A stretch of 52,738 nucleotides of DNA, taken from the IMG/VR virus record IMGVR_UViG_3300047550_006202, positions 1 through 52,738 of that record. One strand, given 5' to 3'. The stretch is from a virus (taxonomy: Duplodnaviria > Caudoviricetes). Each line of letters starts with the position of its first letter. Position 1 is the stretch's first letter. The notes below the pieces were generated by a model. That model was given only the letters and a program-made list of their open reading frames with translations. It was not told the DNA's origin and made no database searches. Shown here one piece after another: positions 1,211 to 52,609 of this stretch. The translations under genes and the position numbers were made by a program.

Positions 1211-1519
1211 ATGGCACGTCTAGACGAAGTAAAAAAACTACAAAAGATCGCAGGTATCCTGAAAGAGAACGTTAACGAAGGATTAGACAGTCCAAAGATA
1301 AGAATGGAGAAGGAAGGATCCGTATATCTAGTGAACTATAGCCTAGATACGGATGAGGGTGAATACATTGAGATGGATGGCACCATAGAAAACGGAGTAT
1401 TTAAGCCTGATTCTTTTGATAACGCTGCGAGTAAAGCTTGGTATGAGCAGAATAAAGATATTGTTGACGATCATATCAATTTCGAACTTGATCAAATGGG
1501 GTATAGCTATACTAAATAG
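1211..1519 (+). CDS. Hypothetical protein, probable internal head protein
   Basis: ATATTTAT at 1184-1191 upstream. N-terminal LQKIAGI followed by LKE/VNE, like other head-module proteins. Confidence 0.75.
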   Translation: MARLDEVKKLQKIAGILKENVNEGLDSPKIRMEKEGSVYLVNYSLDTDEGEYIEMDGTIENGVFKPDSFDNAASKAWYEQNKDIVDDHINFELDQMGYSYTK

Positions 1520-1523
1520 ACAT

Positions 1524-1554
1524 AAAAAAAGAAAGGGACTTCGGTCCCTTTTTT
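1524..1554. terminator. Bidirectional intrinsic terminator with a C(UUCG)G tetraloop
   Basis: A7-G-AAAGGGAC-TTCG-GTCCCTTT-TTT between convergent genes ending at 1519 (+) and 1580 (-). Confidence 0.9.
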
Positions 1555-1579
1555 ATTGCTCAAAATTCGCTGCTGGTCG

Positions 1580-2098
1580 TCACTTCAGTAACCCGTATAA
1601 CGTATCTATGGACCCGGAATTGTGATACTCTGGGTTAGACGGGTGCAGTTCTGGGTTTGCTTTAACGTCCCTCTTAAAGAACCTTCCTGCTATGGAATCG
1701 TTGTAGGCGTCGGTGTGTAGCACTTCCAACTTGAACTGCCAGTATTCTTCGTAGTAGGTCAATTGTTTCTTGGTGAAACACACCTCGAGTACCTCCTTGG
1801 TGAAGTGTTTCTGGCCCAGGGATTCTATGTCCCTAAGCAGCGGCACGTTGCTGCCGTTGTACTCGAGCCAATTGCTCTCTTTGACCACCTTCTTTTTCTT
1901 GGGTACCCGACCGGGTTTTTCCCACTCGGAGATCTCCTTTTTCGTGAGCTTCTTCGTGAGCCTGTTCTGTAGCGATTTTTTCCCTATGTATATCCTTCCG
2001 TTGGTTGTGTTCGTGATCATGTACACGAAACCGACTGCTTTATCTGGGAATTGGGATACGTCTGTTATTTCTTTACCTTTGTATAACCATTTGTTCAT
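1580..2098 (-). CDS. GIY-YIG family nuclease (Seg-like)
   Basis: GFVYMITNTTNGRIYIGKK (GIY-YIG variant), later YYEE and YND, matching the conserved E and N positions. Confidence 0.8.
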   Translation of the reverse strand: MNKWLYKGKEITDVSQFPDKAVGFVYMITNTTNGRIYIGKKSLQNRLTKKLTKKEISEWEKPGRVPKKKKVVKESNWLEYNGSNVPLLRDIESLGQKHFTKEVLEVCFTKKQLTYYEEYWQFKLEVLHTDAYNDSIAGRFFKRDVKANPELHPSNPEYHNSGSIDTLYGLLK

Positions 2099-2105
2099 GC
2101 GTTAC

Positions 2106-2804: not shown

Positions 2805-2815
2805 AGGTATAAATA

Positions 2816-3100
2816 TCAGCTGTCCCACTTGACCACGAAGGTCACATCAGTATTCGAAGGAATTGGATGAGGTGAGGATAGCTTACCGACCACAAGTAAT
2901 TCATTCGCTTCGTTGTATAGACCAATAGCCGTAGCGTAAGGTCTGAAATCCGATCCCGTAACGGCATCGATGTAAGATCCAGTTTCATCTGCTTTTGTAG
3001 CGCTGTTGTTTAGTGTGTAATTGAAATCGTTCTCGTAGACTCTGCACCTCACGATGTTTTCGTAAACTGTCGTCTCTGCTTGAAATGTTATGAATGCCAT
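2816..3100 (-). CDS. Baseplate/tail structural protein; stand-alone domain paralogous to the C-terminus of 10704..11744
   Basis: PYATAIGLYNEANELLVVGKLSSP matches TYITTVGMYNDNNDLLAVAKLSKP, and NDFNYT matches NEFNYT. Confidence 0.8.
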   Translation of the reverse strand: MAFITFQAETTVYENIVRCRVYENDFNYTLNNSATKADETGSYIDAVTGSDFRPYATAIGLYNEANELLVVGKLSSPHPIPSNTDVTFVVKWDS

Positions 3101-3123
3101 GTCAGTGCTTTTTTATAAATATA

Positions 3124-4446
3124 CTATCCACGGTATTCAGGATCACATCCCGAGTTGTAATCCGGGAATACGCCTGTACTAGTTAGATCGTTAACTGTAA
3201 ATATCTTGTATTGTTGTAAGTATTCCGGGTCTCCGCTTATATTATTACCCGTTACTCTATAATAGTGTTGACCGTCGGTAATTATCTCTCCTCCAACGAC
3301 ATTTCCGCCACCAAAACTATTGGCTGTTCTAAAAGGAATTGCACCTGTGACTTTCAATACACCGGCGTATTTTGTATACGGCGTAGTTCCTATGAAATAC
3401 CTTTCGTCGCCGCACTGCACTAACGCATAGTAATCGAATCCTGGAACGTTGGAAAGATACGTACTGTATCTAGTTGAACCAAGATACGTTTTGTCTACCG
3501 AATAAACCCAGTTTGGTCTATACCCGCCGATGTCTCTGACGTACAAATACGGGAAATCGTAAGTCGACGGGTTCGCTGAATACGTGCTATACCACGAATA
3601 ATCATCTTGGTCGTTGGTCATTCCAGGAATAGGTGCCTTGAATAGAAACTCTCCGTTTGATATGTATCCCAATCTGTTGTATCCAATTATGTTGGATTGA
3701 GTCATGCTCGCTACTTCCTCTATGCTGTTTCCCCCGATCAAATACATCGGTTTGTTTATCAAGAATGTACTTACTGTAGGGGTAGGGGTAGGAGTTGGGC
3801 TTCTAGTAACAGAAGGAGTTATCGTTGGAGTTCTAGAGATAGTGACTGTTATTGTCGGTGTAACTGGATTCGGTGTCATTGTCACCGTAGGGGTCACTGA
3901 TATGGTGGGAGTCACGCTTATTGTTTCAGTGGGTGTAGGAGTTAAACTCACTGTAGGGGTGACGCTTATTGTCGGACTAACTGTGACAGTTATGCTTGGA
4001 GTCTTAGAAGGAGTTCTTGAAACGGATACAGTTGGGGTAGTAGTAACCTCGGGAGTTCTACTTATTGATATGGTAGGCGTGAAAGTGACAGTGGGAGTCA
4101 CCGTGATGGTACTGCTAGGCGTTATGGTTACGGTAGGAGTTACCGTTATGGTAACGCTTATAGTAGGTGTTACAGGAGGATAACCAACCAAATAAGCGTC
4201 CGTCCAACTTACGCAGTCCGTACACTCCGTCTTTATTCTGACTATGGTGGTTCCGAATGGGACTATGTGGCTAGTGTATCCCGCTTCCAATTCTGCACGA
4301 CTCACACACTTCTGAAAAGGTTCTTTGAAATCGTCAGCGTCCGTATAGAGGTCGAAAGGCCCTCTCGGTCCTCTCGCGTCTCCAACGTAATCACCGAACG
4401 AAGCGACTATTTTTACTGAGTAGTTTGTGAATACTGAGAATGGCAT
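3124..4446 (-). CDS. Thr/Pro/Ser-repeat virion protein (fibre/appendage-like) 1
   Basis: N-terminal GPFDLYTD...AGY...VPFGT domain, central TPT[IV]S[VI] repeats, and a C-terminal aromatic-rich globular domain. Confidence 0.8.
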   Translation of the reverse strand: MPFSVFTNYSVKIVASFGDYVGDARGPRGPFDLYTDADDFKEPFQKCVSRAELEAGYTSHIVPFGTTIVRIKTECTDCVSWTDAYLVGYPPVTPTISVTITVTPTVTITPSSTITVTPTVTFTPTISISRTPEVTTTPTVSVSRTPSKTPSITVTVSPTISVTPTVSLTPTPTETISVTPTISVTPTVTMTPNPVTPTITVTISRTPTITPSVTRSPTPTPTPTVSTFLINKPMYLIGGNSIEEVASMTQSNIIGYNRLGYISNGEFLFKAPIPGMTNDQDDYSWYSTYSANPSTYDFPYLYVRDIGGYRPNWVYSVDKTYLGSTRYSTYLSNVPGFDYYALVQCGDERYFIGTTPYTKYAGVLKVTGAIPFRTANSFGGGNVVGGEIITDGQHYYRVTGNNISGDPEYLQQYKIFTVNDLTSTGVFPDYNSGCDPEYRG

Positions 4447-4459
4447 ATCTTTCTATTTT

Positions 4460-5404
4460 TTAGCAACACGTTCCACTATAAGTATTGGAGAACGTAATTG
4501 TCACGTCAGTGTCTCCGTAAGCTATTTGACTTATGTTATCAGTCACCTTCAATCTATATACAGCTGATCTAACACCTGGAGGAGTGGGATCACAATCTAC
4601 ACTAAGAATTGTTTGGAATCTTGTGCTATTGTTCGTAAACTGCAAAGGTTCTATATTTGTATCTCCGCTTACATATTCCCAAAGATACGTATAAGGTGCG
4701 TATCCGCCCGCAGCTGTTCCAGTAACGGCCTGCGTATCCGCGGGTGTACACGTACTACACAGACTACAACTGCTTGATCTAGACGATGCATCCATAGTTA
4801 GAGTGAGAGGCGGAGCAGTCGTTTGGCTAGGTGTTACTGATATCGTCTTTGTAGGAGTTATTGATATAGTAGGAGTTTGACTTATTGATATAGTCGGTGT
4901 CACAGATATAGTTTTAGTCACCGTAATAGTCGGAGTAACTGTGATTGTGGGAGTTATTGATATGCTGGGAGTAACAGATATTGTTTTAGTGAATGTGACG
5001 CTTATGGTAGGAGTTACGGAAATCGTTGGAGTTTGTGTCAACGAGATCGTAGGCGTAACGCTTATAGACGCTGTCCTACTTATAGTAGGAGTAGCTGTAA
5101 TGGATATCGTAGGAGTTATGCTCTTAGTAACTGTTATAGTAGGCGTAGGAGTCGCAGTAGGTGTCGGACTGGGTTGTACCACGTAAATGTTTGCGCAGTT
5201 TCTACAAGTTCCTTTGGAACACACCCTCAAACTGTTCGTGCCAGAGGGAACGAAGTTCAAAGTGTAACCAGAAAGGAGCTGATTCTTAGTAACGTCTGTA
5301 GCAAGAGGCGTACAAAATCCATCGAAATCCGTATAGATATCGAAGTAGTTACCGGTATCAGCTCCGGCGGTTGTGATCGTTATTAGTACGGATACTGTTG
5401 ACAT
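4460..5404 (-). CDS. Thr/Pro/Ser-repeat virion protein 2
   Basis: Same N-domain (FDIYTD...SGY...VPSGT), TPTIS repeats, and a C-terminal Ig/PKD-like GGYAPYTYLW...YRLKVTD domain. Confidence 0.8.
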   Translation of the reverse strand: MSTVSVLITITTAGADTGNYFDIYTDFDGFCTPLATDVTKNQLLSGYTLNFVPSGTNSLRVCSKGTCRNCANIYVVQPSPTPTATPTPTITVTKSITPTISITATPTISRTASISVTPTISLTQTPTISVTPTISVTFTKTISVTPSISITPTITVTPTITVTKTISVTPTISISQTPTISITPTKTISVTPSQTTAPPLTLTMDASSRSSSCSLCSTCTPADTQAVTGTAAGGYAPYTYLWEYVSGDTNIEPLQFTNNSTRFQTILSVDCDPTPPGVRSAVYRLKVTDNISQIAYGDTDVTITFSNTYSGTCC

Positions 5405-5443
5405 CTATTTATAAATACGTAATTTTTCATTTCAAAACTATAA

Positions 5444-8400
5444 TTAAATTTTTATACAAGCATTGGCGTTACAGTCTGCCACGTTATACACGGTTCCTAT
5501 GTTCGCTGGTGAAGTCGTTGTAGTGGTGCTAGTTATAGTGTAACATTCTAAACTGTTGTTAGGTACTCCAGTTGGATCAGAGAGCGTGTATACGCCTCCA
5601 ACGGTTAAGGAACTATCTGTTATCCATGTTGATGTTGTACCGTCGCTACATTTTGATACATCATAAGAGTTTCTAAATGGAAGCGTTCTCGTCGGAGATT
5701 TAGTGGGAGTTAACGTAGGAGTTCTTGTGAAAGTGATGGTAGGAGTGGGCGTCACACTTATAGTAGGAGTCACTGTAATGCTTATTGTCGGCGTGACACT
5801 TATTGTAAGCGTTTTAGTTAAACTTATTGTTGGCGTAACGCTTATAGATGCAGTCCTACTTATAGTAGGTGTAACTGTAATCGATATCGTAGGAGTAGCA
5901 GTGATACTTATCGTAGGAGTTTTAGTTATAGACGGGGTTGGAGTTGGAGGTATGTTACAACCCGTGCTTATAACAACAGTTACAGTGGTCTGGCCTATTA
6001 CGAATGTGCTTCCGTTGACGTAAGAACTTCCGTTAACTGTGACTTGATTTACCTTCGAGTAACCGTAAGAGGTTCCCACAGAACAGCCTGTTCCCACAGT
6101 ATCTCCGTTTACAAACTTAGCTCCGCTTTGTCCAGGCGTCCATACAATTCCGCCCCCTGCTCCCTGACCGGCTTGTGTATTGTCTCCGCCTAAGCAATTA
6201 CAGATATCAGTATCTGTTCCTCCAACCCAAACTGTTGCGTAAGATCCTGATACACTTATTTGTTCGCTAAGGGGATCAGACAGCGTCCACGTAAATCTTC
6301 CAGTGCCTCTGTTATAAGAAGTGTATGTTAAAGTAGCGTTATCCACATAATCAGACGTACTCGGTGTGACGGTGACAGTGATAGTGGGAGTAAGCGTAGG
6401 TGTTACACTTATTGTTGGAGTGAGCGTAGGAGTTCTAGTCGGTGTAGGAGTAGGAGCCAATACGCAGGCTGTGTTAATAGAAACTGTTACAGTCGACTGT
6501 CCATCTTGGGTTACCCAACTCTGACCGTTTGATTTCACGTCTCCAGTGGTTGATCCGTGATTTATGGTCATAGAATTATCCTTTGAATGAGCGTAAAGAT
6601 CGCTTATTCCAAGACCCACTGCGCTCTTTGTACCGGCCTCTCCAGATAACCACGTTACGGTAGATAGTATGTAAGATCCGCCTGCTGCGTTAACGCAACT
6701 ATTATCGCTGTAGCTAGTAATAGATGCGAAAGTTATCGTGATATCTTCCCCTACAGCTGAGCTGAGGTTGAAGTAGAACGTATCGTTTAGATTATTGAAA
6801 GACGCAAACGATAGTACTGCGTCCGTCGCGAAATCCGTAGGAGACGGTGTTGGACTTATAGATATTGTAGGAGTTACGGTTTGAGTCAGACTTATAGTTT
6901 TTGTAGGCGTTATACTAATGGTCGGAGTGACACTTATTGTCGGCGTTAAGCTTATCGTAGGAGTTAAGCTTATTGTTTGAGTTAAACTAATAGTAGGGGT
7001 TACTGAGATAGTAGGCGTTAGACTCTTGGTTTGAGTCAAACTTATTGTCGGGGTCAAACTCATCGTCTGAGTGAGACTTATGGTAGGTGTCAAACTTATT
7101 GTCGGGGTCAAACTCATGGTAGGTGTCAAACTCATAGTCTGAGTGAGACTTATGGTAGGTGTCAAACTCACTGTTTGAGTTAGACTTATTGTCGGAGTTT
7201 GAGTTATGCTTATCGTTGGAGTTAAACTAATAGTCTGTGTTACGCTAATCGTAGGCGTTACGCTAATTGTGGGAGTGAGACTGATTGTGACGCTTATCGT
7301 AGGTGTGACACTTATCGTAGGTGTGACGCTTATGGATTTAGTAACACTTATAGTTGGCGTTACAGTAATAGTAGGCGTCAAACTAACTGTAGGCGTCAAA
7401 CTAATTGTTTGAGTTAAGCTTATCGTAGGAGTCAAGCTTATTGTGGGAGTAAGACTTATAGTCTGAGTTACGCTAATCGTAGGAGTAGCGGTTATGCTTA
7501 TAGTTTTAGTAGGAGTGATGCTTATAGTAGGAGTAACTGTGATCGTTGGAGTCAAACTAACTGTAGGCGTCAAACTTATAGTCTTTGTGACGCTTATAGT
7601 AGGAGTTACGCTAATCGTAGGAGTAACAGTGATTGTCGCTGTGACAGTTATGGTTGGCGTTAAACTCTTTGTAGGAGTTTGACTTATCGTAGACGTTACG
7701 CTTATGGTTGGAGTAGCTGTGAGGCTTATTGTCGGAGTGAGACTCTTTGTGGGAGTCAAGCTTATGGTTGGAGTTACGCTTATAGTCGGCGTTACACTTA
7801 TAGTAGGAGTGACGCTGATTGTGGCAGTAACAGTTATAGTGGGAGTCAAGCTCTTTGTCGGCGTTACACTTATAGTGGCCGTTACCGATATCGTAGGAGT
7901 TCCTGTAATGCTGATGGTCGGAGTAACAGTAATAGTGGGCGTAACGCTGATTGTCTGTGTTAAGCTTATTGTAGGGGTCAAACTCTTTGTCGGTGTTAAG
8001 CTTATTGTAGGAGTTATGCTTATAGAAGCAGTTACACTTATACCGGGAGTTACGCTTATGCTTTGAGTCAGACTTATGGTCGGTGTTAAGCTTATTGTAG
8101 GAGTTAAGCTTACAGTTTTTGTTACGGTTATCGTAGGAGTGACTGTGATAGTAGGCGTCAAGCTCTTTGTGGGAGTTTGACTTATCGTTGGACTAACGCT
8201 TATAGTTGGCGTTTGAGATATCGTTGGAGTAACTGATATCGTCGAGGTGACAGTTATGGTCGGAGTTACTGTTATAGTCGGGGTGCTAGTTAACCCAGGA
8301 GTGCTGCTTATTGTAGCTGTTACGCTTATTGTCTGTGTTACACTAATTGTGGGAGTTGCTGTAACTGTGGGAGTTTGAGTGGGAGTTACAGATATCGTAG

Positions 8401-8884
8401 GTGTGTTCGTTACGGTCGGAGTTACAGATATGGTCTCTGTAACGGTGATTGTGGGAGTAGCCGTTATAGAAACCGTTGGAGTGGATGTTACACTTATAGT
8501 AGGAGTAGAAGTTATTGTGATTGTTGGGGTTTTTGTAGCAGTTAAACTAACAGTGGGAGTGTTCGTTATAGTGGGAGTGATACTGATCGTAGGCGTCTTT
8601 GTTATTGACACAGTTGGGGTGTACGAAGGCGTTGTTCCAACGAATCTAGTTACAATGTCTATGTAATTCGTACAACCGTCGCAGTGAGCAGCAACGCGCA
8701 AAATACCCGTGTTAGCGGGAACTTTATTGAACCTATAACCATCTATGAGAAGTTGTCTGGGAATCTTTCTATAGATCGGATATTTAAATCCATCCCAGTC
8801 GCTGAATATATCGCAGTACTCAGAGTCTATCCCTATTCCTGAGAATGATACTGTTACCGATATATATTTTATTTCGTTTCTCAT
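5444..8884 (-). CDS. Long Thr/Pro/Ser hexapeptide-repeat virion protein 3 (1146 aa)
   Basis: Same N-domain (CDIFSD...DGY...VPANT), roughly 590 aa of T-x-T-I-[ST]-[VLI] repeats, two duplicated globular domains and a Cys-rich tail. Confidence 0.85.
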   Translation of the reverse strand: MRNEIKYISVTVSFSGIGIDSEYCDIFSDWDGFKYPIYRKIPRQLLIDGYRFNKVPANTGILRVAAHCDGCTNYIDIVTRFVGTTPSYTPTVSITKTPTISITPTITNTPTVSLTATKTPTITITSTPTISVTSTPTVSITATPTITVTETISVTPTVTNTPTISVTPTQTPTVTATPTISVTQTISVTATISSTPGLTSTPTITVTPTITVTSTISVTPTISQTPTISVSPTISQTPTKSLTPTITVTPTITVTKTVSLTPTISLTPTISLTQSISVTPGISVTASISITPTISLTPTKSLTPTISLTQTISVTPTITVTPTISITGTPTISVTATISVTPTKSLTPTITVTATISVTPTISVTPTISVTPTISLTPTKSLTPTISLTATPTISVTSTISQTPTKSLTPTITVTATITVTPTISVTPTISVTKTISLTPTVSLTPTITVTPTISITPTKTISITATPTISVTQTISLTPTISLTPTISLTQTISLTPTVSLTPTITVTPTISVTKSISVTPTISVTPTISVTISLTPTISVTPTISVTQTISLTPTISITQTPTISLTQTVSLTPTISLTQTMSLTPTMSLTPTISLTPTISLTQTMSLTPTISLTQTKSLTPTISVTPTISLTQTISLTPTISLTPTISVTPTISITPTKTISLTQTVTPTISISPTPSPTDFATDAVLSFASFNNLNDTFYFNLSSAVGEDITITFASITSYSDNSCVNAAGGSYILSTVTWLSGEAGTKSAVGLGISDLYAHSKDNSMTINHGSTTGDVKSNGQSWVTQDGQSTVTVSINTACVLAPTPTPTRTPTLTPTISVTPTLTPTITVTVTPSTSDYVDNATLTYTSYNRGTGRFTWTLSDPLSEQISVSGSYATVWVGGTDTDICNCLGGDNTQAGQGAGGGIVWTPGQSGAKFVNGDTVGTGCSVGTSYGYSKVNQVTVNGSSYVNGSTFVIGQTTVTVVISTGCNIPPTPTPSITKTPTISITATPTISITVTPTISRTASISVTPTISLTKTLTISVTPTISITVTPTISVTPTPTITFTRTPTLTPTKSPTRTLPFRNSYDVSKCSDGTTSTWITDSSLTVGGVYTLSDPTGVPNNSLECYTITSTTTTTSPANIGTVYNVADCNANACIKI
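6840..8630 (-). repeat. Degenerate, mostly 18-bp coding tandem repeat array (TPTISV-type hexapeptide)
   Basis: Continuous repeats such as CTTATAGTAGGAGTTACG with synonymous variation; exact 29-32 bp duplicates spaced 54 and 72 bp apart near 7035-7168. Confidence 0.9.
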
Positions 8885-8888
8885 TTAT

Positions 8889-12415: not shown

Positions 12416-12464
12416 GGTTTATTTGTTTTTAATAAATATAATGTCCCTGAGAAATGTTTCGAAT

Positions 12465-21479: not shown

Positions 21480-21526
21480 ATTGATAAATATCGGGTGTTC
21501 AATTTATTTATTTGTGACTTGGTTTC

Positions 21527-24487: not shown

Positions 24488-25513
24488 TTATTGTCCTGAT
24501 TCCATACCGAATTTATCATTACTCGCATAATTACTTGTAGATGTATAATTATCGTTTTGTTCGGCAGAGTTCCAAGGATTATAATTAGGCATATCAGTTA
24601 ATTGAGTAATTCTTCCCTCTGCGTCTTGTATGTCTTGAGCCGTTATTCCATAAGAATTTAAGGGGAATTCACTTATACTTATTATTTTTGATAAATCTTG
24701 GGTAGAAGTCATCCATATTGTAGTGTGATCTTTAGCACTCTCTTCGTGTAAACCTTGATAATTAGTATCGTAGTTTTGTCCATTACGAATTATAGTTATA
24801 GGATCTCCCGCGTTTGAATTTCCTATAGACCATTCATTTTTAGGAGTTATTTTATCAAATTTATTTGTGCTTCCAAATCTTATAGATTGCCCGTGTCGAC
24901 CTTCAATTATTATATCTCCCTCTTGCGGTTTAAGAGATTTTACAAATGTATTTTCTACAAAAGTATTTCCATAATATAAAGGACTCATCTTTCTATCTTT
25001 AGTAGATCTCACATCTCTATTTATAGGCATATTTAATCCTCGACCTGCGGTTTCATTGGTCTGTTGTTGATAATACAAAGCAGCTTATTCTAAATTTGGA
25101 GATCCTCCATGGTTTGGAAAATTCCAAATAGAATAGGGGGGAAAATAGTAATAACTTTGAGCATCTACATTGTCATTTAAATCAGAGTCTGGGCCCGGTA
25201 TTATATAGACTATTTCGTGAAGTACGGGATATTGTTTTATGAAATTGAATATGGGGTATGCTCCACGAGTTATACCGTCGCCTAAAGATATGTTAGTATT
25301 ACTATATAGGGGAGTAAAAGTGATTCGACCCAAATCTTTTCTTGGGGGAGTTTCTAGACGTTCATTTGATAGTTGAGGAACATTAGCTACCAAAGAAGAA
25401 TTTAATTGTGCGGGTCTAGGATCGAGATTTGTTATTATTGATTTCACACGGCCAATTATAAAAGAGGCCCCGTTATTAGCCTTCGAAGCGCCGCTATATG
25501 TACTACCGAACAT
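24488..25513 (-). CDS. gp5-like baseplate hub protein (OB-fold N-part plus EGR..SIRFG part) interrupted by one in-frame TAA at 25085-25087
   Basis: ORFs 25085..25513 and 24488..25078 share a frame (PNLE*AALYYQQ). N-part has GRVKSI...AYP...YP...E; C-part has LKPQEGDIIIEGRHGQSIRFG. Confidence 0.6.
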
Positions 25514-25882: not shown

Positions 25883-25890
25883 ATAAATAT
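25883..25890 (-). promoter_or_regulatory. Putative late promoter ATATTTAT (representative - strand copy)
   Basis: Same motif on the minus strand at 2809, 3115, 12432, 21484, 28414 and variant GTATTTAT at 5411; all but 28414 lie just upstream of a minus-strand start. Confidence 0.7.
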
Positions 25891-32552: not shown

Positions 32553-32560
32553 ATATTTAT
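32553..32560 (+). promoter_or_regulatory. Putative late promoter ATATTTAT (representative + strand copy)
   Basis: Same motif at 1072, 1184, 35770, 41432, 45738, 47822 and 51132, each upstream of a + strand start. Confidence 0.7.
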
Positions 32561-35769: not shown

Positions 35770-35791
35770 ATATTTATAAGAAAAAATCAGT

Positions 35792-43794: not shown

Positions 43795-45729
43795 ATGGCA
43801 GAAGAAAAACCAAACATTCAAACCAACCTTTTTGGCGCACTGCGCAGGTTGTTTTCCACTGACGTTATCATTCGTAACGAGGGTGGTGGAGCAATAAAAG
43901 TACTCGATAGCGGTAGAATACAAACGAGTGGCGTACTGCAAAACAATAGCCTAATAGACAGATTCAACAAGGTCTATACGACTTCTACGGCTTACGGCGT
44001 AAACTTAAATCTAGCACAGAACTACCAATCTGCGCGAGTACAAATTTATGCAGACTACGACGCCATGGATACGGATGCTATAGTCGCGTCCGCGTTGGAT
44101 ATTATTGCTGATGAGTGCACATTGAAAAACGAACAGGGAGAAGTACTCCAGATAAAATCGTCTGACGAGAACATTCAAAAACTTCTGTACAACCTTTTCT
44201 ATTCTGTACTTAACATAGAATTTACCCTGTGGTCTTGGGTTAGAAACATGTGTAAATACGGAGATTTTTATCTTAAACTTGAAATCGCTGAGAAGTACGG
44301 TATATACAACGTAATACCATTTTCTGCGTACAACATAGTCAGACAAGAAGGATACAATCGGGAAAATCCAAGCGAAATTAGATTTAAATACGATCCAAAT
44401 GCTGCGCTCGCTAGTACAACCGCGGCTTATACCTCCGCTTACAATAATCAAGACGTAGGAATATATTTCGAGAATTACGAGATGGCTCACTTCCGTTTGA
44501 CTGGCGACGTTAACTATTTGCCTTACGGACGTTCGTACTTAGAACCTGCTCGTAAACTATTCAAACAATATACTCTTATAGAGGATGCAATGTTGATCCA
44601 CAGGATCGTTAGAGCGCCTGAGCGCCGTATATTTTATGTTAACGTTGGAGCTATACCGCCCGGAGAAGTTGAAAACTTCATGCAGCGAATGATCTCCAAA
44701 ATGAAGAAGACACCTTTGGTAGATCCGCAGACCGGTCAGTACAATCTTAAGTATAACGTGCAAAACATGTTAGAGGACTACTTCATACCGGTTCGTGGTA
44801 ACGATCAATCAACTAAGATCGATACAGCTAAAGGACTTGAATATAACGGCATTGAAGACGTTCAATACTTCCGCGAAAAACTTTTTGCAGCGCTTAAGAT
44901 CCCCAAAGCTTTTATGGGCTACGAAAAGGATTTGACAGGTAAAGCTACGCTTGCGGCAGAAGACATCAGATTCGCTAGAACAGTAGAAAGGATTCAGAGA
45001 ATCATAGTCTCTGAGCTCACGAAAGTGGGTCTTATACATTTGTACGCCCATGGATATACAAACGAATCCGCAGCGAATTTTACGCTGTCCTTGACTAATC
45101 CATCTATAATATACGATCAAGAGAGAATCGCTCTATTCAAAGAAAAGATTGATTTGGCTACCCAAGCCCTTGATGCTAGACTTCTTCCGAAAGACTTTAT
45201 TTACGATAAGATATTCCACTTCTCCGAAGATCAATACGCAGAAATGGATCAGCAAATAGTAGAAGATCAAAAGAGAATGTTCAGATACGAACAGATCAAA
45301 GCGGAGGGCAATGATCCTGCTGAAACAGGTCAGGCATTTGGCACTCCTCACCAATTGGCAGGTCTATATGGAGGTAAGGGCGATATGACCCTTGACGTTC
45401 CAACTGGATACGATGAAAACAAACCAGAAAAAGAGTATGAGAGCCCTGGTCGCCCTCAAAAATATAAATCTTCTAGAGGGACAGACGCTTCACCCTTTGG
45501 CAGAGATGCAATGGGAAGGTACGACATGAAGTCGAATGCTGAGACTGGAGAAGACAAATTGAGATCGGAATACAAACCGTTTGGTCTAACTTCAGAGAAC
45601 GCAATGTCAGAATATCTGAAGAATAAAGCCCTATTAGAGAAGATGAACAAGATGAACAAGAGAAAAGTGAATCTTTTTGAACAGCCGGACGTATTGAACG
45701 AGGATAATATCCTAGACGATCAGGATTAA
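43795..45729 (+). CDS. gp20: Portal vertex protein (T4 gp20-like)
   Basis: EDAMLIHRIVRAPERRIFYVNVG and MLEDYFIPVRG; directly after TerL. Confidence 0.96.
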   Translation: MAEEKPNIQTNLFGALRRLFSTDVIIRNEGGGAIKVLDSGRIQTSGVLQNNSLIDRFNKVYTTSTAYGVNLNLAQNYQSARVQIYADYDAMDTDAIVASALDIIADECTLKNEQGEVLQIKSSDENIQKLLYNLFYSVLNIEFTLWSWVRNMCKYGDFYLKLEIAEKYGIYNVIPFSAYNIVRQEGYNRENPSEIRFKYDPNAALASTTAAYTSAYNNQDVGIYFENYEMAHFRLTGDVNYLPYGRSYLEPARKLFKQYTLIEDAMLIHRIVRAPERRIFYVNVGAIPPGEVENFMQRMISKMKKTPLVDPQTGQYNLKYNVQNMLEDYFIPVRGNDQSTKIDTAKGLEYNGIEDVQYFREKLFAALKIPKAFMGYEKDLTGKATLAAEDIRFARTVERIQRIIVSELTKVGLIHLYAHGYTNESAANFTLSLTNPSIIYDQERIALFKEKIDLATQALDARLLPKDFIYDKIFHFSEDQYAEMDQQIVEDQKRMFRYEQIKAEGNDPAETGQAFGTPHQLAGLYGGKGDMTLDVPTGYDENKPEKEYESPGRPQKYKSSRGTDASPFGRDAMGRYDMKSNAETGEDKLRSEYKPFGLTSENAMSEYLKNKALLEKMNKMNKRKVNLFEQPDVLNEDNILDDQD

Positions 45730-45762
45730 ATATCTGTATATTTATAGCTAGATCATAACGAA

Positions 45763-46626
45763 ATGACGATAAAGCATAGCAAATATCGTAACACGGCTAT
45801 TCTTTTTGAATTGCTAGTGAGACAAACCACAGCCGACCTGCTGCAAAACAGAGACTCTAGGGCAGTGAAGATACTTAGAAAGCACTTCACGAATACAGAA
45901 TTGGGCAAAGAATACGCCCTTTACACGTCCTTTAATACTATCGGAAGATTGTCCGAATCAAAGGCAGAGATGTTTATTAACACTGTATTGGAGCAAAGAA
46001 AGAAACTGAACGAAGACAGGCTTAGAAAAGAGAAATTTAACCTCATAAAGGAAATAAAGAACGTTTACGATATAGACGATTTCTTCAAAGCCAAGATAGA
46101 TAATTACAAGACGTACGCCTCCATATACACTCTTTTCGAATCCCAGAACAACAAGGCTTTTGTTGATAGCAAACAACTGCTATTAAATAAAATAAACATA
46201 GTTGAACACATCGTGGGAGAAAACGCAAGCCAAAAACCGGCTTCTGCTGCTTTAGTGGAAGAATTCATGAAGGAAGACAAAGAGGTTCGTTTATTGGCTT
46301 ACAAGCTTTTGGTTGAGAAATTCAACGAAAAGTACTCTGATCTTTCAAAGAAGCAAAAAGCCGTTTTGAAGGAGTACATAAACAACATATCGGAAACTGA
46401 GAATCTCAAAGAGTTTATGAATAAGACCATAAAAGAGATCAAGTCCGAGCTGAGTAACATAAGCACTAAGATAAAAGATCCAGTGGTTAAGATAAAACTC
46501 AACGAAACTATCAAGTTGCTGCATCCTATAAACAACAACCAGTTCGTTAAAGACGAAATAATAACAAGCGTTTTGCAATACTTGGATCTGATAGACGAGT
46601 TAAAACGTGTCTCTAATGAAAAATAA
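45763..46626 (+). CDS. Conserved helical protein of the head module (prohead-core-like)
   Basis: KHSKYRNTAILFELLVRQ; ATATTTAT at 45738-45745; lies between portal and protease. Confidence 0.75.
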   Translation: MTIKHSKYRNTAILFELLVRQTTADLLQNRDSRAVKILRKHFTNTELGKEYALYTSFNTIGRLSESKAEMFINTVLEQRKKLNEDRLRKEKFNLIKEIKNVYDIDDFFKAKIDNYKTYASIYTLFESQNNKAFVDSKQLLLNKINIVEHIVGENASQKPASAALVEEFMKEDKEVRLLAYKLLVEKFNEKYSDLSKKQKAVLKEYINNISETENLKEFMNKTIKEIKSELSNISTKIKDPVVKIKLNETIKLLHPINNNQFVKDEIITSVLQYLDLIDELKRVSNEK

Positions 46627-47677
46627 AAATCGTGATTTTAACGTCCAATTTGCCACTCAAAGGCTTCGTGAAAATGTCACGAATGCGGGCGGAGCAACAG
46701 CAACACCTGGCACAGGAGAACAGTATTTTGCAAGGGGTAAAAAAATCAGAGAGACAATAAAGAAAGTAGACGGAAAATACGCCGTTTATCCAGAAAAGGG
46801 CGGAAGCAGATTGGGTACTCACGATACAAAAGAGAAAGCGCAAAAGCAATTAGCGGCCATCGAGATTAGCAAACAACAAAAAGAGGCTAAAGAACGTGGA
46901 ACTGGAAAGGGACTAATATATGTCGACCTCTGGGAAATGTTTAGCGAAGAGGAGGCAGATCCCAAAGAAGGTGACTCAGTAAAGATACAAAAGAAAGGAA
47001 GTCCACAAGACGGAAAGATCGGCAAGATAGTTTCCATCACGGAACCCGGCGCTTACAACATAGACTTCAATGGAAAAGTATACACATTCCAAGAAACGGA
47101 TTTTGTGATCGATAAAAGCGCAGAAGATCAACCTGAAGAAACAGGAGAAGAAAATGCCGAAGAGCCCGTTAGCGAGGGTTTAGGCGCGCCTGGAATGAAC
47201 GTAGGTACTGTTGGTCTGGGAGGCGGAAGAAAAGGCATCTATTTCATAACTGATAAGGGAAAATTTGTATACGAACCCAATCCATTAGAATACGAAGCCT
47301 TTGAACTCTCAGGCGGTAAGGTTCGAATGCTGTTAGCAAAATCTTGGTTTCCCAAAGCAAAACCTTGGGAAGAAAAACCGAATCCGATGGCATCGCTAGG
47401 TCAGGGTAAAGGTCACCACATTGACGAGGAGTTGAACGAAAACTATTCGCGCTTTAAGAAAGAGACTAAGACACGCACCAACGAGCAACAGTTGCACGCA
47501 GCAATGAGACTCGCTGAGAAAAAGATACACGAGGCCAATAGGATCCTAGAGTACACTTCGCAACTGCGCGGTGAACTGAACGAGACCAAAGTGAACAAGA
47601 ACATTAAAAGAATAATGGAAAAAATCACTGTCGGCATCGCAGAAGCCTACAGCAAAATGAAAAAAATCAAAAGGTAA
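46616..47677 (+). CDS. Modular head protein
   Basis: In-frame ATG 46616; modules LGTHDTKEKAQKQLAAIE and KOW-like EGDSVKI...GKIGKI; LRE, IRE, VSE and LNE sites. Confidence 0.75.
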   Translation: MKNKNRDFNVQFATQRLRENVTNAGGATATPGTGEQYFARGKKIRETIKKVDGKYAVYPEKGGSRLGTHDTKEKAQKQLAAIEISKQQKEAKERGTGKGLIYVDLWEMFSEEEADPKEGDSVKIQKKGSPQDGKIGKIVSITEPGAYNIDFNGKVYTFQETDFVIDKSAEDQPEETGEENAEEPVSEGLGAPGMNVGTVGLGGGRKGIYFITDKGKFVYEPNPLEYEAFELSGGKVRMLLAKSWFPKAKPWEEKPNPMASLGQGKGHHIDEELNENYSRFKKETKTRTNEQQLHAAMRLAEKKIHEANRILEYTSQLRGELNETKVNKNIKRIMEKITVGIAEAYSKMKKIKR

Positions 47678-47680
47678 ATC

Positions 47681-47818
47681 ATGGCTACAAAGACCAATAA
47701 AAAAGCCGGCATGAACATCGGCAAAATCAGTTTCGGTAAACGTCGCGAAGGGGTTGCAAAGAAAAACTGGGGCCCCAAAGAGGAAAGACCGAAAAAATAT
47801 AGGGGACAAGGAAGATAA
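47681..47818 (+). CDS. Small basic protein ending YRGQGR (45 aa; not in ORF track)
   Basis: MATKTNKKAGMNIGKISFGKRREGVAKKNWGPKEERPKKYRGQGR fills the gap between 47677 and 47834. Confidence 0.75.
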   Translation: MATKTNKKAGMNIGKISFGKRREGVAKKNWGPKEERPKKYRGQGR

Positions 47819-47833
47819 CTGATATTTATTAGT

Positions 47834-48874
47834 ATGAAAAACATAACAAACCTGTACATTCAACTGAACGAGGGAAAGATTAGCAAGGAATTCTTTATGA
47901 AGACCGCTAGGATGCAATTCCCCCAGTACATCAGTCCCACCCTTTCTTTTAGGGATACTGTAAACGTACTTAAGGGTAAGAGACTCATTCAAGAGGCGCA
48001 GACCCTAACAGTCGATCAGGTCATAGATCGCCTGAATCCCTACCAATTTAGAAACGGAGTACAAAAAGAACTTGCAAAGGTACAAAATCCTACCCGAGAA
48101 GACATTCACCGCGCGAATCAAAAAGTAGCCAAGAAGCTTCAAAAGAATCCCACGGCTTACGAAGACCAGATGTTTGCAAATGCAAAAGACATCGAAAAGC
48201 GCGACGATAAACTTCACACCAGCGAAGTTAAAGTAGGTTCTCAGAGCGTTGATAAGGGTAATGCGATGAAAGTCAAGAAAAAACTTGAGTCAGCTAACAC
48301 CCGCGCCACTAAGAAAGAGAACAAAAAAGGCAAACCCCGTGGAGTTAAGGTCATGACCTACAAGGCTAAGACCGCAAAGGGCATTTCAGAGACCATGCCC
48401 GCAACAGGCAAAGAGAAAGTCCTTAAGGTTCTTCACGAGAACATGTACGGCGCTACGGTTCCAACTCCCCACGATTGGCACGTAGGCCGCGAGGTGAATA
48501 CGCCTAAAGGCATAGGAACCATAAAAGAAGTTCACGGAGGCACGTTGACTGTTGAAATGAAAGACGGGAAAATGGTAGAATATCAAATGAACGTGGTGGA
48601 AAAACACACGAATTCTGCTAAGCAAGGGAGCAATATGCAACAGAAATCTTCTTCGGAAATGGACAATAAAGCAGATAAACTGAAGGAGATTGCTAAGACT
48701 CTTAAAAATCACATCAAAAAGATGCGTGAAGGAGAAATGATGCGATCTAAAAAACCAAATGCTGCCGGTAAAAGAAACGTCATAGTCGTTGATGATCCAA
48801 AAGCAAAAGCGGCGGCAATTCAAGCTAATTATGAGCCAGCAGGTAAAGCTGAAGCTCCGCCCACTAATCAATGA
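47834..48874 (+). CDS. Basic modular head protein with SH3-like module
   Basis: ATATTTAT at 47822-47829; LNE, IQE, LHE and MRE sites; VGREVNTPKGIGTIKEVHGGTLTVEM module. Confidence 0.75.
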   Translation: MKNITNLYIQLNEGKISKEFFMKTARMQFPQYISPTLSFRDTVNVLKGKRLIQEAQTLTVDQVIDRLNPYQFRNGVQKELAKVQNPTREDIHRANQKVAKKLQKNPTAYEDQMFANAKDIEKRDDKLHTSEVKVGSQSVDKGNAMKVKKKLESANTRATKKENKKGKPRGVKVMTYKAKTAKGISETMPATGKEKVLKVLHENMYGATVPTPHDWHVGREVNTPKGIGTIKEVHGGTLTVEMKDGKMVEYQMNVVEKHTNSAKQGSNMQQKSSSEMDNKADKLKEIAKTLKNHIKKMREGEMMRSKKPNAAGKRNVIVVDDPKAKAAAIQANYEPAGKAEAPPTNQ

Positions 48875-48900
48875 TAAGGCATAAATAAAATTATTGTAGA

Positions 48901-49533
48901 ATGCCAAAAGAACTCCTCATAGAGTACTCGATATTCAAACCCAAAATAGAACTTAGGGAAGGGTTTAAATCTTCTAACGGCAACATGATCGTTAGCGGAC
49001 AGGTACAAGCCTGTGATAAGCCCAACGCAAACAAGCGCATATACCCCTACGAGACTCTTAAGAAGCAAGTCGAATTGTATTTGGATGGACCCATAAGAGA
49101 GAATCGTGCGTTGGGAGAATTGGACCACCCAGAGTCATCGGTGATAAACCTTAAGAATGTTTCTCACAACATAAAGAGCCTTTGGTGGGAAGATAAGGAC
49201 CTCTACGGAACGGTTGAGATACTTCCTACGCCATCGGGCAACATACTTAAGGAATTGTTCAAAAACGGTATCACCGTGGGAATATCTTCTAGAGCACAGG
49301 GTTCAACAAGTCCAATAGGCGAAGGATTGGTAAAGGTCGAAGACGATCTTGAAGTGATATGTTGGGACTTTGTATCCCAACCATCAACCTACGGTGCGTA
49401 CATGAAACCCATGAACGGTATAAACGAGTCTATAGATTACAATCAAAGAATCGTAAATAATTATAGTAGAGCGAACGATCTGATGAGGAGCATAATATGC
49501 GAGATGTCGGGCGTTTGTTGCGTATCAAAATAA
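48901..49533 (+). CDS. gp21: Prohead core protease (T4 gp21, peptidase S77/U9)
   Basis: NANKRIYP, ALGELDHP, VSH, GISSRAQG, WDFVSQPS. Confidence 0.95.
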   Translation: MPKELLIEYSIFKPKIELREGFKSSNGNMIVSGQVQACDKPNANKRIYPYETLKKQVELYLDGPIRENRALGELDHPESSVINLKNVSHNIKSLWWEDKDLYGTVEILPTPSGNILKELFKNGITVGISSRAQGSTSPIGEGLVKVEDDLEVICWDFVSQPSTYGAYMKPMNGINESIDYNQRIVNNYSRANDLMRSIICEMSGVCCVSK

Positions 49534-49539
49534 AAAAGC

Positions 49540-51111
49540 ATGGAACAGAAGAAAAAACAGATCTTACTAGAAAGACAAAGATTTCAAAAGTTGGCGGGTA
49601 TAAATACTACCGAAACCGACTTTCTTCTCGAATTCTCAGATTTTTACGAGAGCTTGGAGAATAGAAGGGACGATCTTATTTTAGAAGCTGAAGAAGCTCA
49701 ATCTGGGGGCGGTATGCCGACATTACCAAATGATCCAGCGAAATTAGTTAATGTAAAGGCTTTTCCAAACATAGAAAAAATTGAACAATTCACACCCGGC
49801 AAAGGAACTAAATTACCAACATTAAAAGTAAAGAAGAAAAAGAATCCTAACGCAAAAGGAACAGACTCGGGAACAGACTCTTCAAAATCCTCTAGCGGAA
49901 GTGTTTCAGGCGGGGGCTTGTCTTCTAATTCTTCATCTTCAAAAAATGAGGATAAGCAGCAAGTAAATGAAATGCTGGATCCCATCAGCTGGACATTAGC
50001 AGCCCCAATGCTCGCTCAGGGCGCAGGAAAATTGGCAGACTGGATTGCTGATAAGGTGAGTGTTAAGAAAATGAGTCAACAAAAAGCACAAGATACTTTT
50101 AAACAAGTATTGCAGGACGCAAAAGACTTACAAAAAAGGGTTGATAAATTGCCTAGAGATGAAAAAGTCTCCCCAGAGACTATGAATGAAATCAATAATT
50201 TCATCAAAAAAGAATTTGAATTTCACAAAGACGGCGAAGACCACGGAAAAGTACACGAATTAAAAACGATCACTGGACGTAAAACAGGGTCCGAATACTT
50301 TCGTGATAAGAAAAAATCCTCCTCGTCCAGTTCATCTAGTCAGACTGATGCAGACATGGAAAAACGCTCTGCTAGTATTAAAAAAAGAGAAGAAGATGAG
50401 CGCGCGGCTATTGGTAAAGTGCCAATACACTTAAGAGGAAAGTGGCAAAACAAAGTGTTCGGCGACAAATTCATGGGCCAACTTCAAAACGCATTTAACA
50501 AACCTCCCCAGTCCGAAAAAGATTTTTTTGTAACAAAAGACGATACGAACTACGATGCGGACTTAAAGTGTCAAATGTTGGTAAGCTCTGTTGATCATCA
50601 CTTAGACGTCGGTGTTAGCGGATCCGCGGTGGGTAGATTCTTTAGAAAATTAGCTCACAAAGCGCACGACGGTTACATAGACGCCGTTGGTACTACTATA
50701 GGCACCGTACTTAAGTTGTATATATCTAACAGTTACATATTATACAATCCTGAGACTAAAAAGCTGGAACAAGCCGTAAAAGGACAAGATGAAATGAAAG
50801 ATGTTTCCGCCCAGTATTCAACAATTCACAAGTACTTATCCAACGAACAATACAGAAAAAGCGTTAACACTATACTGTATTGCGTTTTGGCCATAGGGTG
50901 GTCAGCTAAGCACGTGGCAGAGATAGGAAAAGAGGCTTATGCTACTATATCCGGTAACGAGGGCGCTCTGGAAACAGTGGCCGAAGTCGGAGGAGAGGCT
51001 GCAAAAGGCGTGGCTTCTAGCATGAGCGCTGGTGTCACAAACGCGATAACGGCAGCTAAATCAGGAAAAACAGGCGGAGAGGTCATAAGAGCACTATTTA
51101 ACTTGACCTAA
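49540..51111 (+). CDS. Hypothetical protein, probable head-packaged
   Basis: N-terminal LLE.RFQKLAGI; ILE and VNE sites; Ser-rich linkers; Ala/Gly-rich C-terminal helices. Confidence 0.75.
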   Translation: MEQKKKQILLERQRFQKLAGINTTETDFLLEFSDFYESLENRRDDLILEAEEAQSGGGMPTLPNDPAKLVNVKAFPNIEKIEQFTPGKGTKLPTLKVKKKKNPNAKGTDSGTDSSKSSSGSVSGGGLSSNSSSSKNEDKQQVNEMLDPISWTLAAPMLAQGAGKLADWIADKVSVKKMSQQKAQDTFKQVLQDAKDLQKRVDKLPRDEKVSPETMNEINNFIKKEFEFHKDGEDHGKVHELKTITGRKTGSEYFRDKKKSSSSSSSSQTDADMEKRSASIKKREEDERAAIGKVPIHLRGKWQNKVFGDKFMGQLQNAFNKPPQSEKDFFVTKDDTNYDADLKCQMLVSSVDHHLDVGVSGSAVGRFFRKLAHKAHDGYIDAVGTTIGTVLKLYISNSYILYNPETKKLEQAVKGQDEMKDVSAQYSTIHKYLSNEQYRKSVNTILYCVLAIGWSAKHVAEIGKEAYATISGNEGALETVAEVGGEAAKGVASSMSAGVTNAITAAKSGKTGGEVIRALFNLT

Positions 51112-51131
51112 TCGTTTTTTTTCAAGTGCGC

Positions 51132-51229
51132 ATATTTATGGGTAAATGCGCGAATTTCTATTGTCGCGCTATACTATTTTTAACCCTATATCGTCTCAAT
51201 TCTGAATAGACGATTAACGCACAAACAAG
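51132..51229 (+). promoter_or_regulatory. Putative late promoter and structured 5' leader of the scaffold/capsid operon
   Basis: ATATTTAT 51132-51139; stems GGGT/ACCC, GCGCGA/TCGCGC and ATCGTCT/AGACGAT. Confidence 0.6.
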
Positions 51230-52609
51230 ATGGAAAAGAACATCTATCAACAAGCGATTCTTGACGCGAAAGCTATTCGTGCGAGTGCCATTGCGAACGC
51301 TAAAGCAAGTTTGCAAGAGGCTATCGAGCCGAAGATTCAAGAAATGATGCGTCTTAGACTTTCCGAAGAACTTGAAGAGGAGCTCGAAGAGGGCAACTAC
51401 GAAGAGGGAATGAAACACGGGGAGATGGAAGAAGACGCTGTGAACGAAGCTTCTCTTGACGAGATCCTCGCCGAACTTGACGCCATGGAAGAAGGCAAAA
51501 AAGACATGGAAGAAGGTAAGGAGGAAATGGAAGAGGGCAAAGACGAAGAAGAAGTTGTGAAAGAAGCCGAAGACGACGAAGAGCCAGCTGACGATGCCGA
51601 AGGCGAAGGTGAAGGCGATGAAGCCGAAGCCGACGAAGAAGGCGGAGAAGAAGGCGGAGACGAAGAAGGCGGCGAAGAAGGCGAAGAAGGTGGCGAAGAG
51701 GAAGTAAGCGACGAAACGAAAGTAATCGACATCACTCTTGGCGACCTAAAGCAAATCCTACAATCCGTAATGGACGGTGAGGCACAAGGTGAAGAAGATC
51801 TCGAGGCCGACGTAGACATGCCAGGAGGAGAAGAAGGCGAAGAAGGCGGTGAAGACGCTGGCGCTGAGGCTCCTGAAGGTGGTGAAGAAGAGGCTGGAGA
51901 AGAAGTATCCCTTGACGAAATCCTTGCAGAACTTGAGAACGAAGGCTACGGTGCAGGCGGGCAAAACGACGCAGCAGGCGCAGCAAAATTCCAAGAGGCT
52001 AAGGGTCACTCTGGAGGTGTTTACACCAAAGGGGTTAAAGGCGTAAAAGAGGCCAAGAAAGAAGAAGACAAAGAGGAGAAAGTCGAAGAAGGCAAAGGTC
52101 ACTCAGGTGGCGTCTACACAAAAGGCGTCAAAGGCGTGAAAGAGGCCAAGAAAGACGATGAAAAGGTCGAAGAGGGCAAAGGTCACTCAGGTGGCGTCTA
52201 TACAAAAGGCGTTAAAGGTGTGAAAGAAGCCAAGAAAGAGGACGAGAAACTCGATGAGCTGAAGAAAGAGCTCAAAGAGGCCAAGAATGCTATCAAAGTC
52301 CTCAGCGAAAACATCAAAGAAGTCAACCTTCTGAATGCTAAGCTGCTTTTCATGAACAAGATTTTCAAATCGAAGTCACTCAACGAGTCTCAAAAAGTAA
52401 AAGTGATCAAAGCATTTGATCGCGCTGGTTCTGTAAGAGAAGTGAAAAACGTGTACGAAACTTTGAAAGAGTCTTTGAATACAAAGTCTACGATTAAAGA
52501 ATCTATCGGTTTCGCTTCGAAGCCCGCGGGTGTCGCCCCGGCAAAAGGCCCGATCGTTGAATCGGAAGCTTTTGTATCGCGTTGGCAAAAAATCGCTGGC
52601 ATAAAGTAA
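51230..52609 (+). CDS. Prohead scaffold/core protein (gp22-like role)
   Basis: Extremely acidic with coiled-coil ends (EVNLLNAKLLF); directly upstream of the major capsid gene. Confidence 0.85.
   Translation: MEKNIYQQAILDAKAIRASAIANAKASLQEAIEPKIQEMMRLRLSEELEEELEEGNYEEGMKHGEMEEDAVNEASLDEILAELDAMEEGKKDMEEGKEEMEEGKDEEEVVKEAEDDEEPADDAEGEGEGDEAEADEEGGEEGGDEEGGEEGEEGGEEEVSDETKVIDITLGDLKQILQSVMDGEAQGEEDLEADVDMPGGEEGEEGGEDAGAEAPEGGEEEAGEEVSLDEILAELENEGYGAGGQNDAAGAAKFQEAKGHSGGVYTKGVKGVKEAKKEEDKEEKVEEGKGHSGGVYTKGVKGVKEAKKDDEKVEEGKGHSGGVYTKGVKGVKEAKKEDEKLDELKKELKEAKNAIKVLSENIKEVNLLNAKLLFMNKIFKSKSLNESQKVKVIKAFDRAGSVREVKNVYETLKESLNTKSTIKESIGFASKPAGVAPAKGPIVESEAFVSRWQKIAGIK
52001..52237 (+). repeat. Three near-identical 60-nt coding repeats (KGHSGGVYTKGVKGVKEAKK) in the scaffold
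   Basis: Copies start at about 52001, 52094 and 52178, with identical peptide and synonymous DNA differences. Confidence 0.9.

Follow-up and report, generated by a model that had tools for sequence, protein, structure and literature searches.

Why does the same short peptide close the putative head scaffold of a phage and open two proteins that are otherwise unrelated to the scaffold and to each other? This question is raised by the IMG/VR virus record IMGVR_UViG_3300047550_006202, which was analysed in its entirety as a single contig of 52,738 bases (the window). The motif QK[IL]AGI was found exactly three times in the six-frame translation of the window, each time on the + strand, and the looser patterns QKxAG and K[IL]AGI matched at the same three places only, across all six frames. 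Comparison of the three copies with those of related phages suggests that the motif is likely to be the core of a removable head-loading leader, a propeptide of the T4 capsid-targeting sequence (CTS) type that mimics the tail of the scaffold.

A scaffold tail and its N-terminal copies

The first copy lies within KKLQKIAGILKE of P0001 (open reading frame (ORF) 1211-1519, 102 aa), where QKIAGI (1241-1258) forms residues 11-16. The second is contained in QRFQKLAGINT of P0002 (ORF 49540-51111, 523 aa), with QKLAGI at 49585-49602 corresponding to residues 16-21. The third is found at the C-terminus of the acidic P0003 (ORF 51230-52609, 459 aa), which ends SRWQKIAGIK, residues 453-458 being QKIAGI (52586-52603). 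BLASTP aligned P0001 with P0002 in the tag region only (7/13 identities, E 0.15), and the same was true of P0002 and P0003 (6/8 identities, E 0.69); outside the motif the three proteins are unrelated. A sequence-only reading of this DNA had already noted the SRWQKIAGIK ending of the scaffold, the same motif at the start of two otherwise unrelated proteins and the presence of xxE sites after it, and each of these observations was borne out. In P0001, I-L-K-E19 comes straight after the Gly of the motif, so that the predicted leader M1-E19 (1211-1267, +) ends in a gp21-type site. In P0002 the first canonical site after the core is L-L-E31, giving a predicted leader M1-E31 (49540-49632, +). The pairwise matches within the window are too short to be significant alone, and significance comes from the relatives. 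Synonymous codon differences occur among the three copies at 4/6 codons, which argues for a likeness maintained in the peptide and against a recent DNA copy.

The protein that ends in the motif, P0003 (51230-52609, +), occupies the position of T4 gp22 in a gp20-gp21-gp22-gp23 gene order, with the gene for the prohead protease upstream and that for the major capsid protein downstream. It has a net charge of -67 and contains 17 [LI]xE sites against 10.2 expected. Pfam and PHROG searches with P0003 gave no match. Alignment of a profile of 28 P0003 homologues with T4 gp22 by hhalign produced a weak match (E 2.3e-4, probability 44.7, 53 columns) in the domain preceding the tail, including an L-[TN]-E-S-Q-K-x-K-V stretch. 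In addition, the last 13 residues of P0003 and T4 gp22 can be aligned by eye without a gap, equally far from the C-terminus in both proteins; the identical residues are V, S, K and A, and the similar pairs are Y/W, V/I and S/G. Gene position, charge, cut sites and the weak gp22 profile match together identify P0003 as a predicted gp22-like prohead scaffold. In the AlphaFold2 (AF2) model, an N-terminal helix is followed by a long, disordered acidic stretch and then by a C-terminal domain of three helices at approximately residues 329-416 (predicted local distance difference test (pLDDT) >90); pLDDT is <50 for 248 residues. Many invariant residues fall in this C-terminal domain, for which a fold search of the model returned generic three-helix bundles only, with Z values below the noise bar for helical folds (≤9.7). 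A separate observation concerns scaffold residues ~250-340 (~51980-52250), which comprise three tandem copies of a ~30-residue unit K-G-H-S-G-G-V-Y-T-K-G-V-K-G-V-K-E-A-K-K...; the close relatives L003 and L004 have two copies, and the copy number thus varies.

The tail peptide itself, S445-K459 (52562-52606, +), follows the I-V-E444 site and is predicted to form an amphipathic helix over residues 444-456. The ending R-[WMF]-x-x-[LI]-A-[GN]-I followed by 1-3 residues is common to all 28 aligned scaffolds, R451, A456 and I458 being invariant. The consensus of the tail reads [VI]-x-R-[WMF]-Q-K-[IL]-A-G-I, and this core of ~10 residues is also found at the start of many unrelated small proteins. 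A Glu is found 7 residues ahead of the invariant Arg in 27 of these 28 sequences.

A profile was built from 21 distinct scaffold tails alone and compared with 3,462 distinct six-frame ORFs from all loci. The best non-scaffold matches were eight N-terminal leaders (E 1.8e-3 to 1.3e-2), with no internal match at that level; P0002 was matched over residues 14-22 (E 4.9e-3). With a mixed profile, A1, there were 37 C-terminal and 12 N-terminal matches at E <0.05, two at ORF ends cut by a contig end and none that were internal, some of the matched sequences having also been used to build A1. When 10 whole related genomes or contigs were searched with A1, all 20 matches fell at protein ends: 10 scaffold tails, eight extreme N-termini of small ORFs and two C-termini of a 309-312-aa non-scaffold protein. 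The enrichment at protein termini that would be expected of a tag was therefore seen across these relatives, and the recovery of leaders by tails alone supports the earlier suggestion that the tag was copied from the scaffold C-terminus. In Flavobacterium phage immuto (host Flavobacterium sp. LMO8), which has two leader-bearing genes (immuto26A_188 at 111675-112139 of MW353175 and an ORF at ~25061-25456) with leaders ending ...I-I-T-E, 12 of 14 aligned residues are common to a leader and the phage's own scaffold tail. Strict covariation of tag and tail within genomes was considered and is not claimed, as the W of the tail is replaced by M, F or L in the leaders of other genomes.

Relatives G004, G008 and G001 (L102:622-1548, L103:613-1536 and L092:2016-2975) encode a protein of 309-320 aa that contains a D-G-H-H-R-W motif and has a scaffold-type tail at or near its C-terminus, which suggests C-terminal use of the tag on a non-scaffold protein as well. 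The 309-aa version gives a weak match to ParBc_2 (ParB-like nuclease; E 0.009, 16.5 bits, below the cut-off of 23.6); its AF2 model, based on three sequences, reached a pLDDT of only 36.9, too low to be of use.

Leader portability and protease sites

A search with P0001 identified eight metagenome proteins that have its 19-residue leader at the start and differ beyond it; one body family accounts for three of these, while the remainder differ mutually. Comparison of a 30-position leader profile with 1.84 billion cluster representatives yielded 858 at E ≤1e-3, and the leader statistics given here are drawn from the best 150 of these 858 clusters and from wider tagged sets taken from them. The core lies within the first 30 residues in 144 of the best 150. 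In five it is internal, and as an in-frame Met shortly precedes it in most of them, these may be fusions or have wrongly called starts. A Met is present at G-15 in 138/153 leaders, and phi-phi-x-E occurs at G+1 to G+4 in 145/149. Relative to the Glu, position E-6 is L or I in 152/153 leaders and E-3 is I, L or V in 153/153. Tagged proteins have a median length of 120 aa, and 137 of them fall into 121 body families (bodies ≥40 aa, blastp E <1e-4, single linkage).

Exchange of the body behind a conserved leader can be seen in relative G001, whose protease is 91% identical. Here 95% DNA identity extends over window positions 1-1270, stops one codon past Glu19 and resumes at 1595. The gene adjoining this swapped cassette (1580-2098, -) is homing-endonuclease-like (phrog_314, E 3.3e-16), although the top PHROG match carries the label NAD synthetase (E 2.3e-34); the break in synteny with G001 falls between 1270 and 1595. 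The sequence-only reading had also taken the tag to be portable and to be removed by the protease. The spread of the leader over clusters and body families and the body swap in G001 are consistent with the first proposal; the second agrees with the predicted gp21-type site after the core in nearly all leaders and with a Peptidase_S77 gene nearby.

The two bodies in the window are putative cargo. That of P0001 (1268-1519, +; 83 aa) has a net charge of -12, no family match and no [LI]xE site. That of P0002 (49633-51111, +; 492 aa) is an orphan in which low-complexity Ser/Lys linkers occur together with a C-terminal part rich in Ala and Gly; no segment of transmembrane grade was detected in it (highest KD19 1.21). 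No homologue of P0002 was found among 5.8 billion proteins, an Atlas search returning sub-threshold rows only, and neither PHROGs nor Pfam gave a match for P0001, P0002 or seven tagged proteins of relatives.

We compared the frequency of the cut-site motif in tagged bodies with that in other proteins. Over the 137 bodies, 174 [LI]xE sites were observed against 212 expected (observed/expected ratio (O/E) 0.82), a value as low as this being reached in 0/200 shuffles, whereas the controls [LI]xD and Ex[LI] had O/E of 1.25 and 1.10. For other proteins of the window [LI]xE has an O/E of 1.38. The scaffold and three core-like proteins of the head module are enriched 1.7- to 2.8-fold, the latter having 14 against 5.6 expected (287 aa), 12 against 4.8 (356 aa) and 6 against 2.2 (346 aa); the protease has 8 against 3.0, and the portal 6 against 7.2. 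Avoidance of the cut site would be expected of proteins that share the inside of the prohead with the protease, and the depletion fits cargo selected to survive an enzyme that destroys the core.

Proposed head loading, candidate docking partners and rival explanations

If the leader is a loading signal, it would occupy, during prohead assembly, the docking site that normally takes the scaffold tail, located either on the inside of the coat lattice or on the three-helix domain towards the C-terminal end of the scaffold itself, and the cargo would therefore co-assemble with the core. At maturation, the protease would degrade the scaffold, cutting just upstream of the tail, and would also clip the leader off the cargo. 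The cargo body, proposed to survive the protease by virtue of its few cut sites, would then stay in the head and probably be injected with the DNA.

Such a scheme has its model in the T4 internal proteins IPII and IPIII, whose CTS (Mullaney and Black 1996, as cited in the accessible text of PMC9026906 and PMC9958956) is the 10-residue leader MKTYQEFIAE, ending I-A-E and containing Y4 and F7. Residues 4 and 7 are described as targeting and residues 8 and 10 as directing processing (PMC9026906, accessible text), and the cargo is placed in the scaffold core (same portions of PMC9026906 and PMC9958956). Both kinds of leader are N-terminal from residue 1, both end [LI]-x-E for a gp21-family protease, and the hydrophobic E-6 and E-3 of the leaders described here correspond to T4 positions 4 and 7. 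Both are also borne by diverse, fast-changing small proteins, in phages that have gp20, gp21, gp22 and gp23 homologues in the same order. However, the leader here has ~20 residues, compared with 10 in T4, and is without sequence identity to MKTYQEFIAE; in its core it reproduces the scaffold tail of the same phage, unlike the T4 CTS; the bodies are acidic or neutral while the T4 internal proteins are basic; and loading is established for T4 and proposed for the leaders here. The likeness of P0003 to gp22 extends to the tail, yet T4 is without leaders that copy it, and no function for the gp22 tail was found in the accessible portions of the T4 literature.

Other systems share single features with the proposed leader. 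In encapsulins, cargo-loading peptides direct unrelated cargo inside an HK97-fold shell by means of a short terminal peptide; these cellular compartments, which are not phage heads, have no scaffold and use another motif that is not removed by a protease. Herpesvirus UL26 and UL26.5 resemble the present case in that assembly depends on the C-terminal tail of the scaffold, the protease is loaded because it has this tail too, and cleavage upstream of the tail at maturation sets the scaffold free. The common herpesvirus tail differs in that it arises from nested in-frame genes and stays C-terminal, in contrast to a peptide that has been moved to the N-terminal end of unrelated genes at dispersed places in the genome. 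Nested genes also underlie lambda C/Nu3. To go by the title of Thomsen et al. 1995, the common C-terminal 25 residues of UL26 and UL26.5 are reportedly required for capsid assembly. For DarB of phage P1, which belongs to another phage lineage, an N-terminal signal of 30 residues suffices to send a reporter to the capsid, and no likeness to a scaffold tail is reported in the accessible text (PMC9024508).

Several observations weigh against a loading leader derived from the scaffold tail. The common stretch in the window comprises only 6-8 residues, with the BLASTP values given above, and the tail-only profile scores P0001 at just E 1.6, because K-L stands where tails have R-[WMF]. The L-L-E31 site of P0002 is ten residues past the end of the motif, and thus not adjacent to it. 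A canonical [LIVM]-x-E site precedes the tail in only 18 of the 28 scaffolds, the others having T-I-E (nine) or I-V-D (one). Depletion of cut sites over all bodies is modest, and for P0002 it is not significant (1 against 3.5 expected). The tagged bodies are acidic in 75 of 137 cases and basic in none, at variance with the basic internal proteins of T4. In the complete relatives G003 and Mel-JY01 the tail is present and the A1 profile search found no leader-bearing gene. The CTS of T4 does not resemble the tail of T4 gp22, suggesting that mimicry is not general among T4-like phages. The tail in the AF2 monomer reaches a pLDDT of only ~60, which says nothing on docking, and no virion proteome of immuto phages or of another relative was found in the literature as far as its text was accessible.

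The short window matches would be compatible with chance recurrence of a short peptide, and on their pairwise E values alone this could be argued. We reject it as having almost no probability, given the exclusive placement at protein ends in the 10 genomes, the recovery of leaders by the tail-only profile and the 858 clusters library-wide. Conservation at the DNA level is a different proposition, in which the leader is kept as a recombination element or translation-start region for cassette exchange and its peptide is functionless. The exact replacement of a body behind the leader in a 95%-identical context, next to a homing-endonuclease-like gene, is what such an element would leave behind, but the synonymous differences between the window copies, the strong per-position amino-acid conservation over 858 clusters and the occurrence of the same peptide at C-termini, where a role in translation start is impossible, make this account very improbable.

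It is also improbable, though to a lesser degree, that the leader is merely a propeptide handled by the protease, which keeps the protein inactive until cut or marks it for processing and has no loading role. A cut site at fixed spacing in 145 of 149 leaders and the overlap of the leader with the P-side of that site are in keeping with this idea. The scaffold tail, however, holds the same core without a cut site after it, suggesting a role for the core apart from cleavage. The prohead protease of T4 acts inside the prohead, and a substrate must consequently get there first; moreover, a T4 leader with its Glu changed to Asp is still packaged. That the T4 targeting residues are separable from the processing residues, as noted above, points in the same direction.

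The remaining alternative accepts loading and differs in the docking step only: the tail helix would dock on the three-helix C-terminal domain of a neighbouring scaffold molecule, and the leaders would mimic this scaffold-scaffold contact, so that the cargo co-polymerises with the core. Helical peptides are often bound by small three-helix bundles of this kind, and the domain holds many invariant residues, although the fold result is to be taken as a lead only (VIA Z ≤9.7). T4 internal proteins are described as entering the core before the shell and co-purifying with gp22 (PMC9026906, accessible text), and the placement of T4 CTS cargo in the scaffold core, not on the coat, means that the partner may be the scaffold itself. 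On the other hand, the AF2 monomer has the tail as a separate helix (residues 444-456, pLDDT ~60) behind a disordered linker and not confidently docked on the C-terminal domain. The C-terminal parts of P22 and herpesvirus scaffolds bind coat, and the reported requirement for the herpesvirus tail in capsid assembly also counts against docking on the core. As a complete explanation we regard docking on the scaffold core as rather doubtful. Provided that loading is real, our overall assessment is that the coat and the scaffold core are almost equally likely partners, the coat being slightly ahead, with something else as a minor possibility.

A CTS-type leader modelled on the scaffold tail is thus the explanation that we favour. 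A clip-off, engineerable loading tag is not new in itself, having been established for T4 and also for P1 DarB. What appears to be new is the origin of the tag as a copy of the phage's own scaffold tail moved to other proteins, and searches of accessible literature by motif strings (one unrelated match) or by concept found no paper describing a scaffold-tail copy as a leader. In the accessible part of a 2023 review, the localisation of proteins into the T4-type prohead is called mysterious (PMC9958956). A leader that copies the scaffold tail makes the placement of T4-type cargo testable, as the binding partner of the tail would be the cargo receptor. Through it, at least 858 protein clusters, almost all of them without known function, also become candidates for proteins that abundant Bacteroidota phages of freshwater and marine habitats package and may inject. 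If confirmed, loading by this leader would represent a second natural address tag for phage heads, alongside the CTS of T4.

More tentatively, one docking site in the prohead may be used by scaffold and cargo alike, the hundreds of small and mostly acidic tagged proteins being a fast-changing arsenal that is packed in the head and delivered along with the DNA. Anti-defence factors and DNA mimics would be examples; we consider this possible, at less than an even chance. The leader would in that case provide a sequence handle for injected phage effectors in metagenomes and would also lead directly to the receptor used in T4-type capsid targeting.

The head-gene module and neighbouring genes

The contig is a fragment of a distant T4-like myovirus. 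The sequencing DNA runs that contain it are labelled freshwater metagenomes, one of them perhaps from the source sample, and no RNA run was found among the runs listed. By portal identity, the closest named relatives are Flavobacterium phage immuto (56.5%) and Microcystis phage Mel-JY01 (45.9%), together with an uncultured 484-kb phage. PHROG and Pfam searches revealed a head module in T4 order on the + strand from 42193 onward, which consists of the large terminase, the portal, three conserved unknowns, the protease, P0002, P0003 and the major capsid protein. The gp20-like portal protein (43795-45729, +) matches phrog_213 (E 4.7e-68). It is followed by the conserved 287-, 356- and 346-aa proteins (45763-48874, +), which have homologues in 78, 35 and 39 ORFs of related loci and are probably prohead core proteins. 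The prohead protease (48901-49533, +) belongs to the T4 gp21 family (PF03420 Peptidase_S77, E 3.4e-22; phrog_207, E 4.3e-47). Its Cys-rich C-terminus (C-E-M-S-G-V-C-C-V-S-K) is kept in close relatives, and T4 gp21 is without such an ending.

Only the start of the gp23-like major capsid protein (52637-52738, +) is present before the contig ends, its first 34 residues being those of relative L003, where the full-length protein carries PF07068. The N-terminus of the capsid protein, in the window and in related loci, resembles a short CTS (M-A-N-L-V-Q-N-L-L-S-E). A further stretch of the capsid protein, K-K-W-Q-K-S-G-L-L-E-G, is conserved down to T4 gp23 (N-K-W-K-P-L-L-E-G); it resembles the tag only if one gap is allowed, and is left as an observation.

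More distant relatives, with proteases ~48% identical, have scaffolds that end R-F-K-K-L-A-N-I-L and arrays of small genes opening with a leader of T4 length, M-x-K-L-x-[DN]-[IL]-L-x-E. In five such loci (L055, L063, L070, L073 and L081), five to eight small genes are arrayed between protease and scaffold. The array genes there start either with the 10-residue form M-x-K-L-K-[DN]-[IL]-L-x-E or with M-x-x-L-K-x-L-S-x-I-T-T-R-Y, and the arrays look like a dense region of cargo cassettes. Among 788 proteins, the regular expression [KR]-phi-x-x-phi-phi-x-E, picked after the data were seen, was 24-fold commoner in the first 12 positions (30/9,456) than elsewhere (32/237,925). A gene annotated as ribosomal protein S21 (RpsU) lies between protease and scaffold in Mel-JY01 (L002:14749-14976), with RpsU look-alike ORFs at the same place in distant relatives (L055:15347-15547, L063:9927-10127 and L073:12971-13198).

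A promoter-like motif, ATATTTAT, is found at 1184-1191 (+), 27 nt upstream of the P0001 start. It has 16 matches in the window against 5.5 expected, among them further copies at 3115-3122 (-), 12432-12439 (-), 21484-21491 (-), 25883-25890 (-), 32553-32560, 35770-35777, 45738-45745 and 47822-47829. Approximately 10 copies precede a same-strand gene start by no more than ~30 nt, those of P0001 and of the head genes at 45763 and 47834 among them, and the motif may be a phage promoter element. Elsewhere in the window, four consecutive large genes (3124-10700, -; 440, 314, 1146 and 603 aa) all match phrog_15511, a family of unknown function, with five matches in the 1146-aa protein; they probably encode repeat-built tail fibre or receptor-binding proteins.

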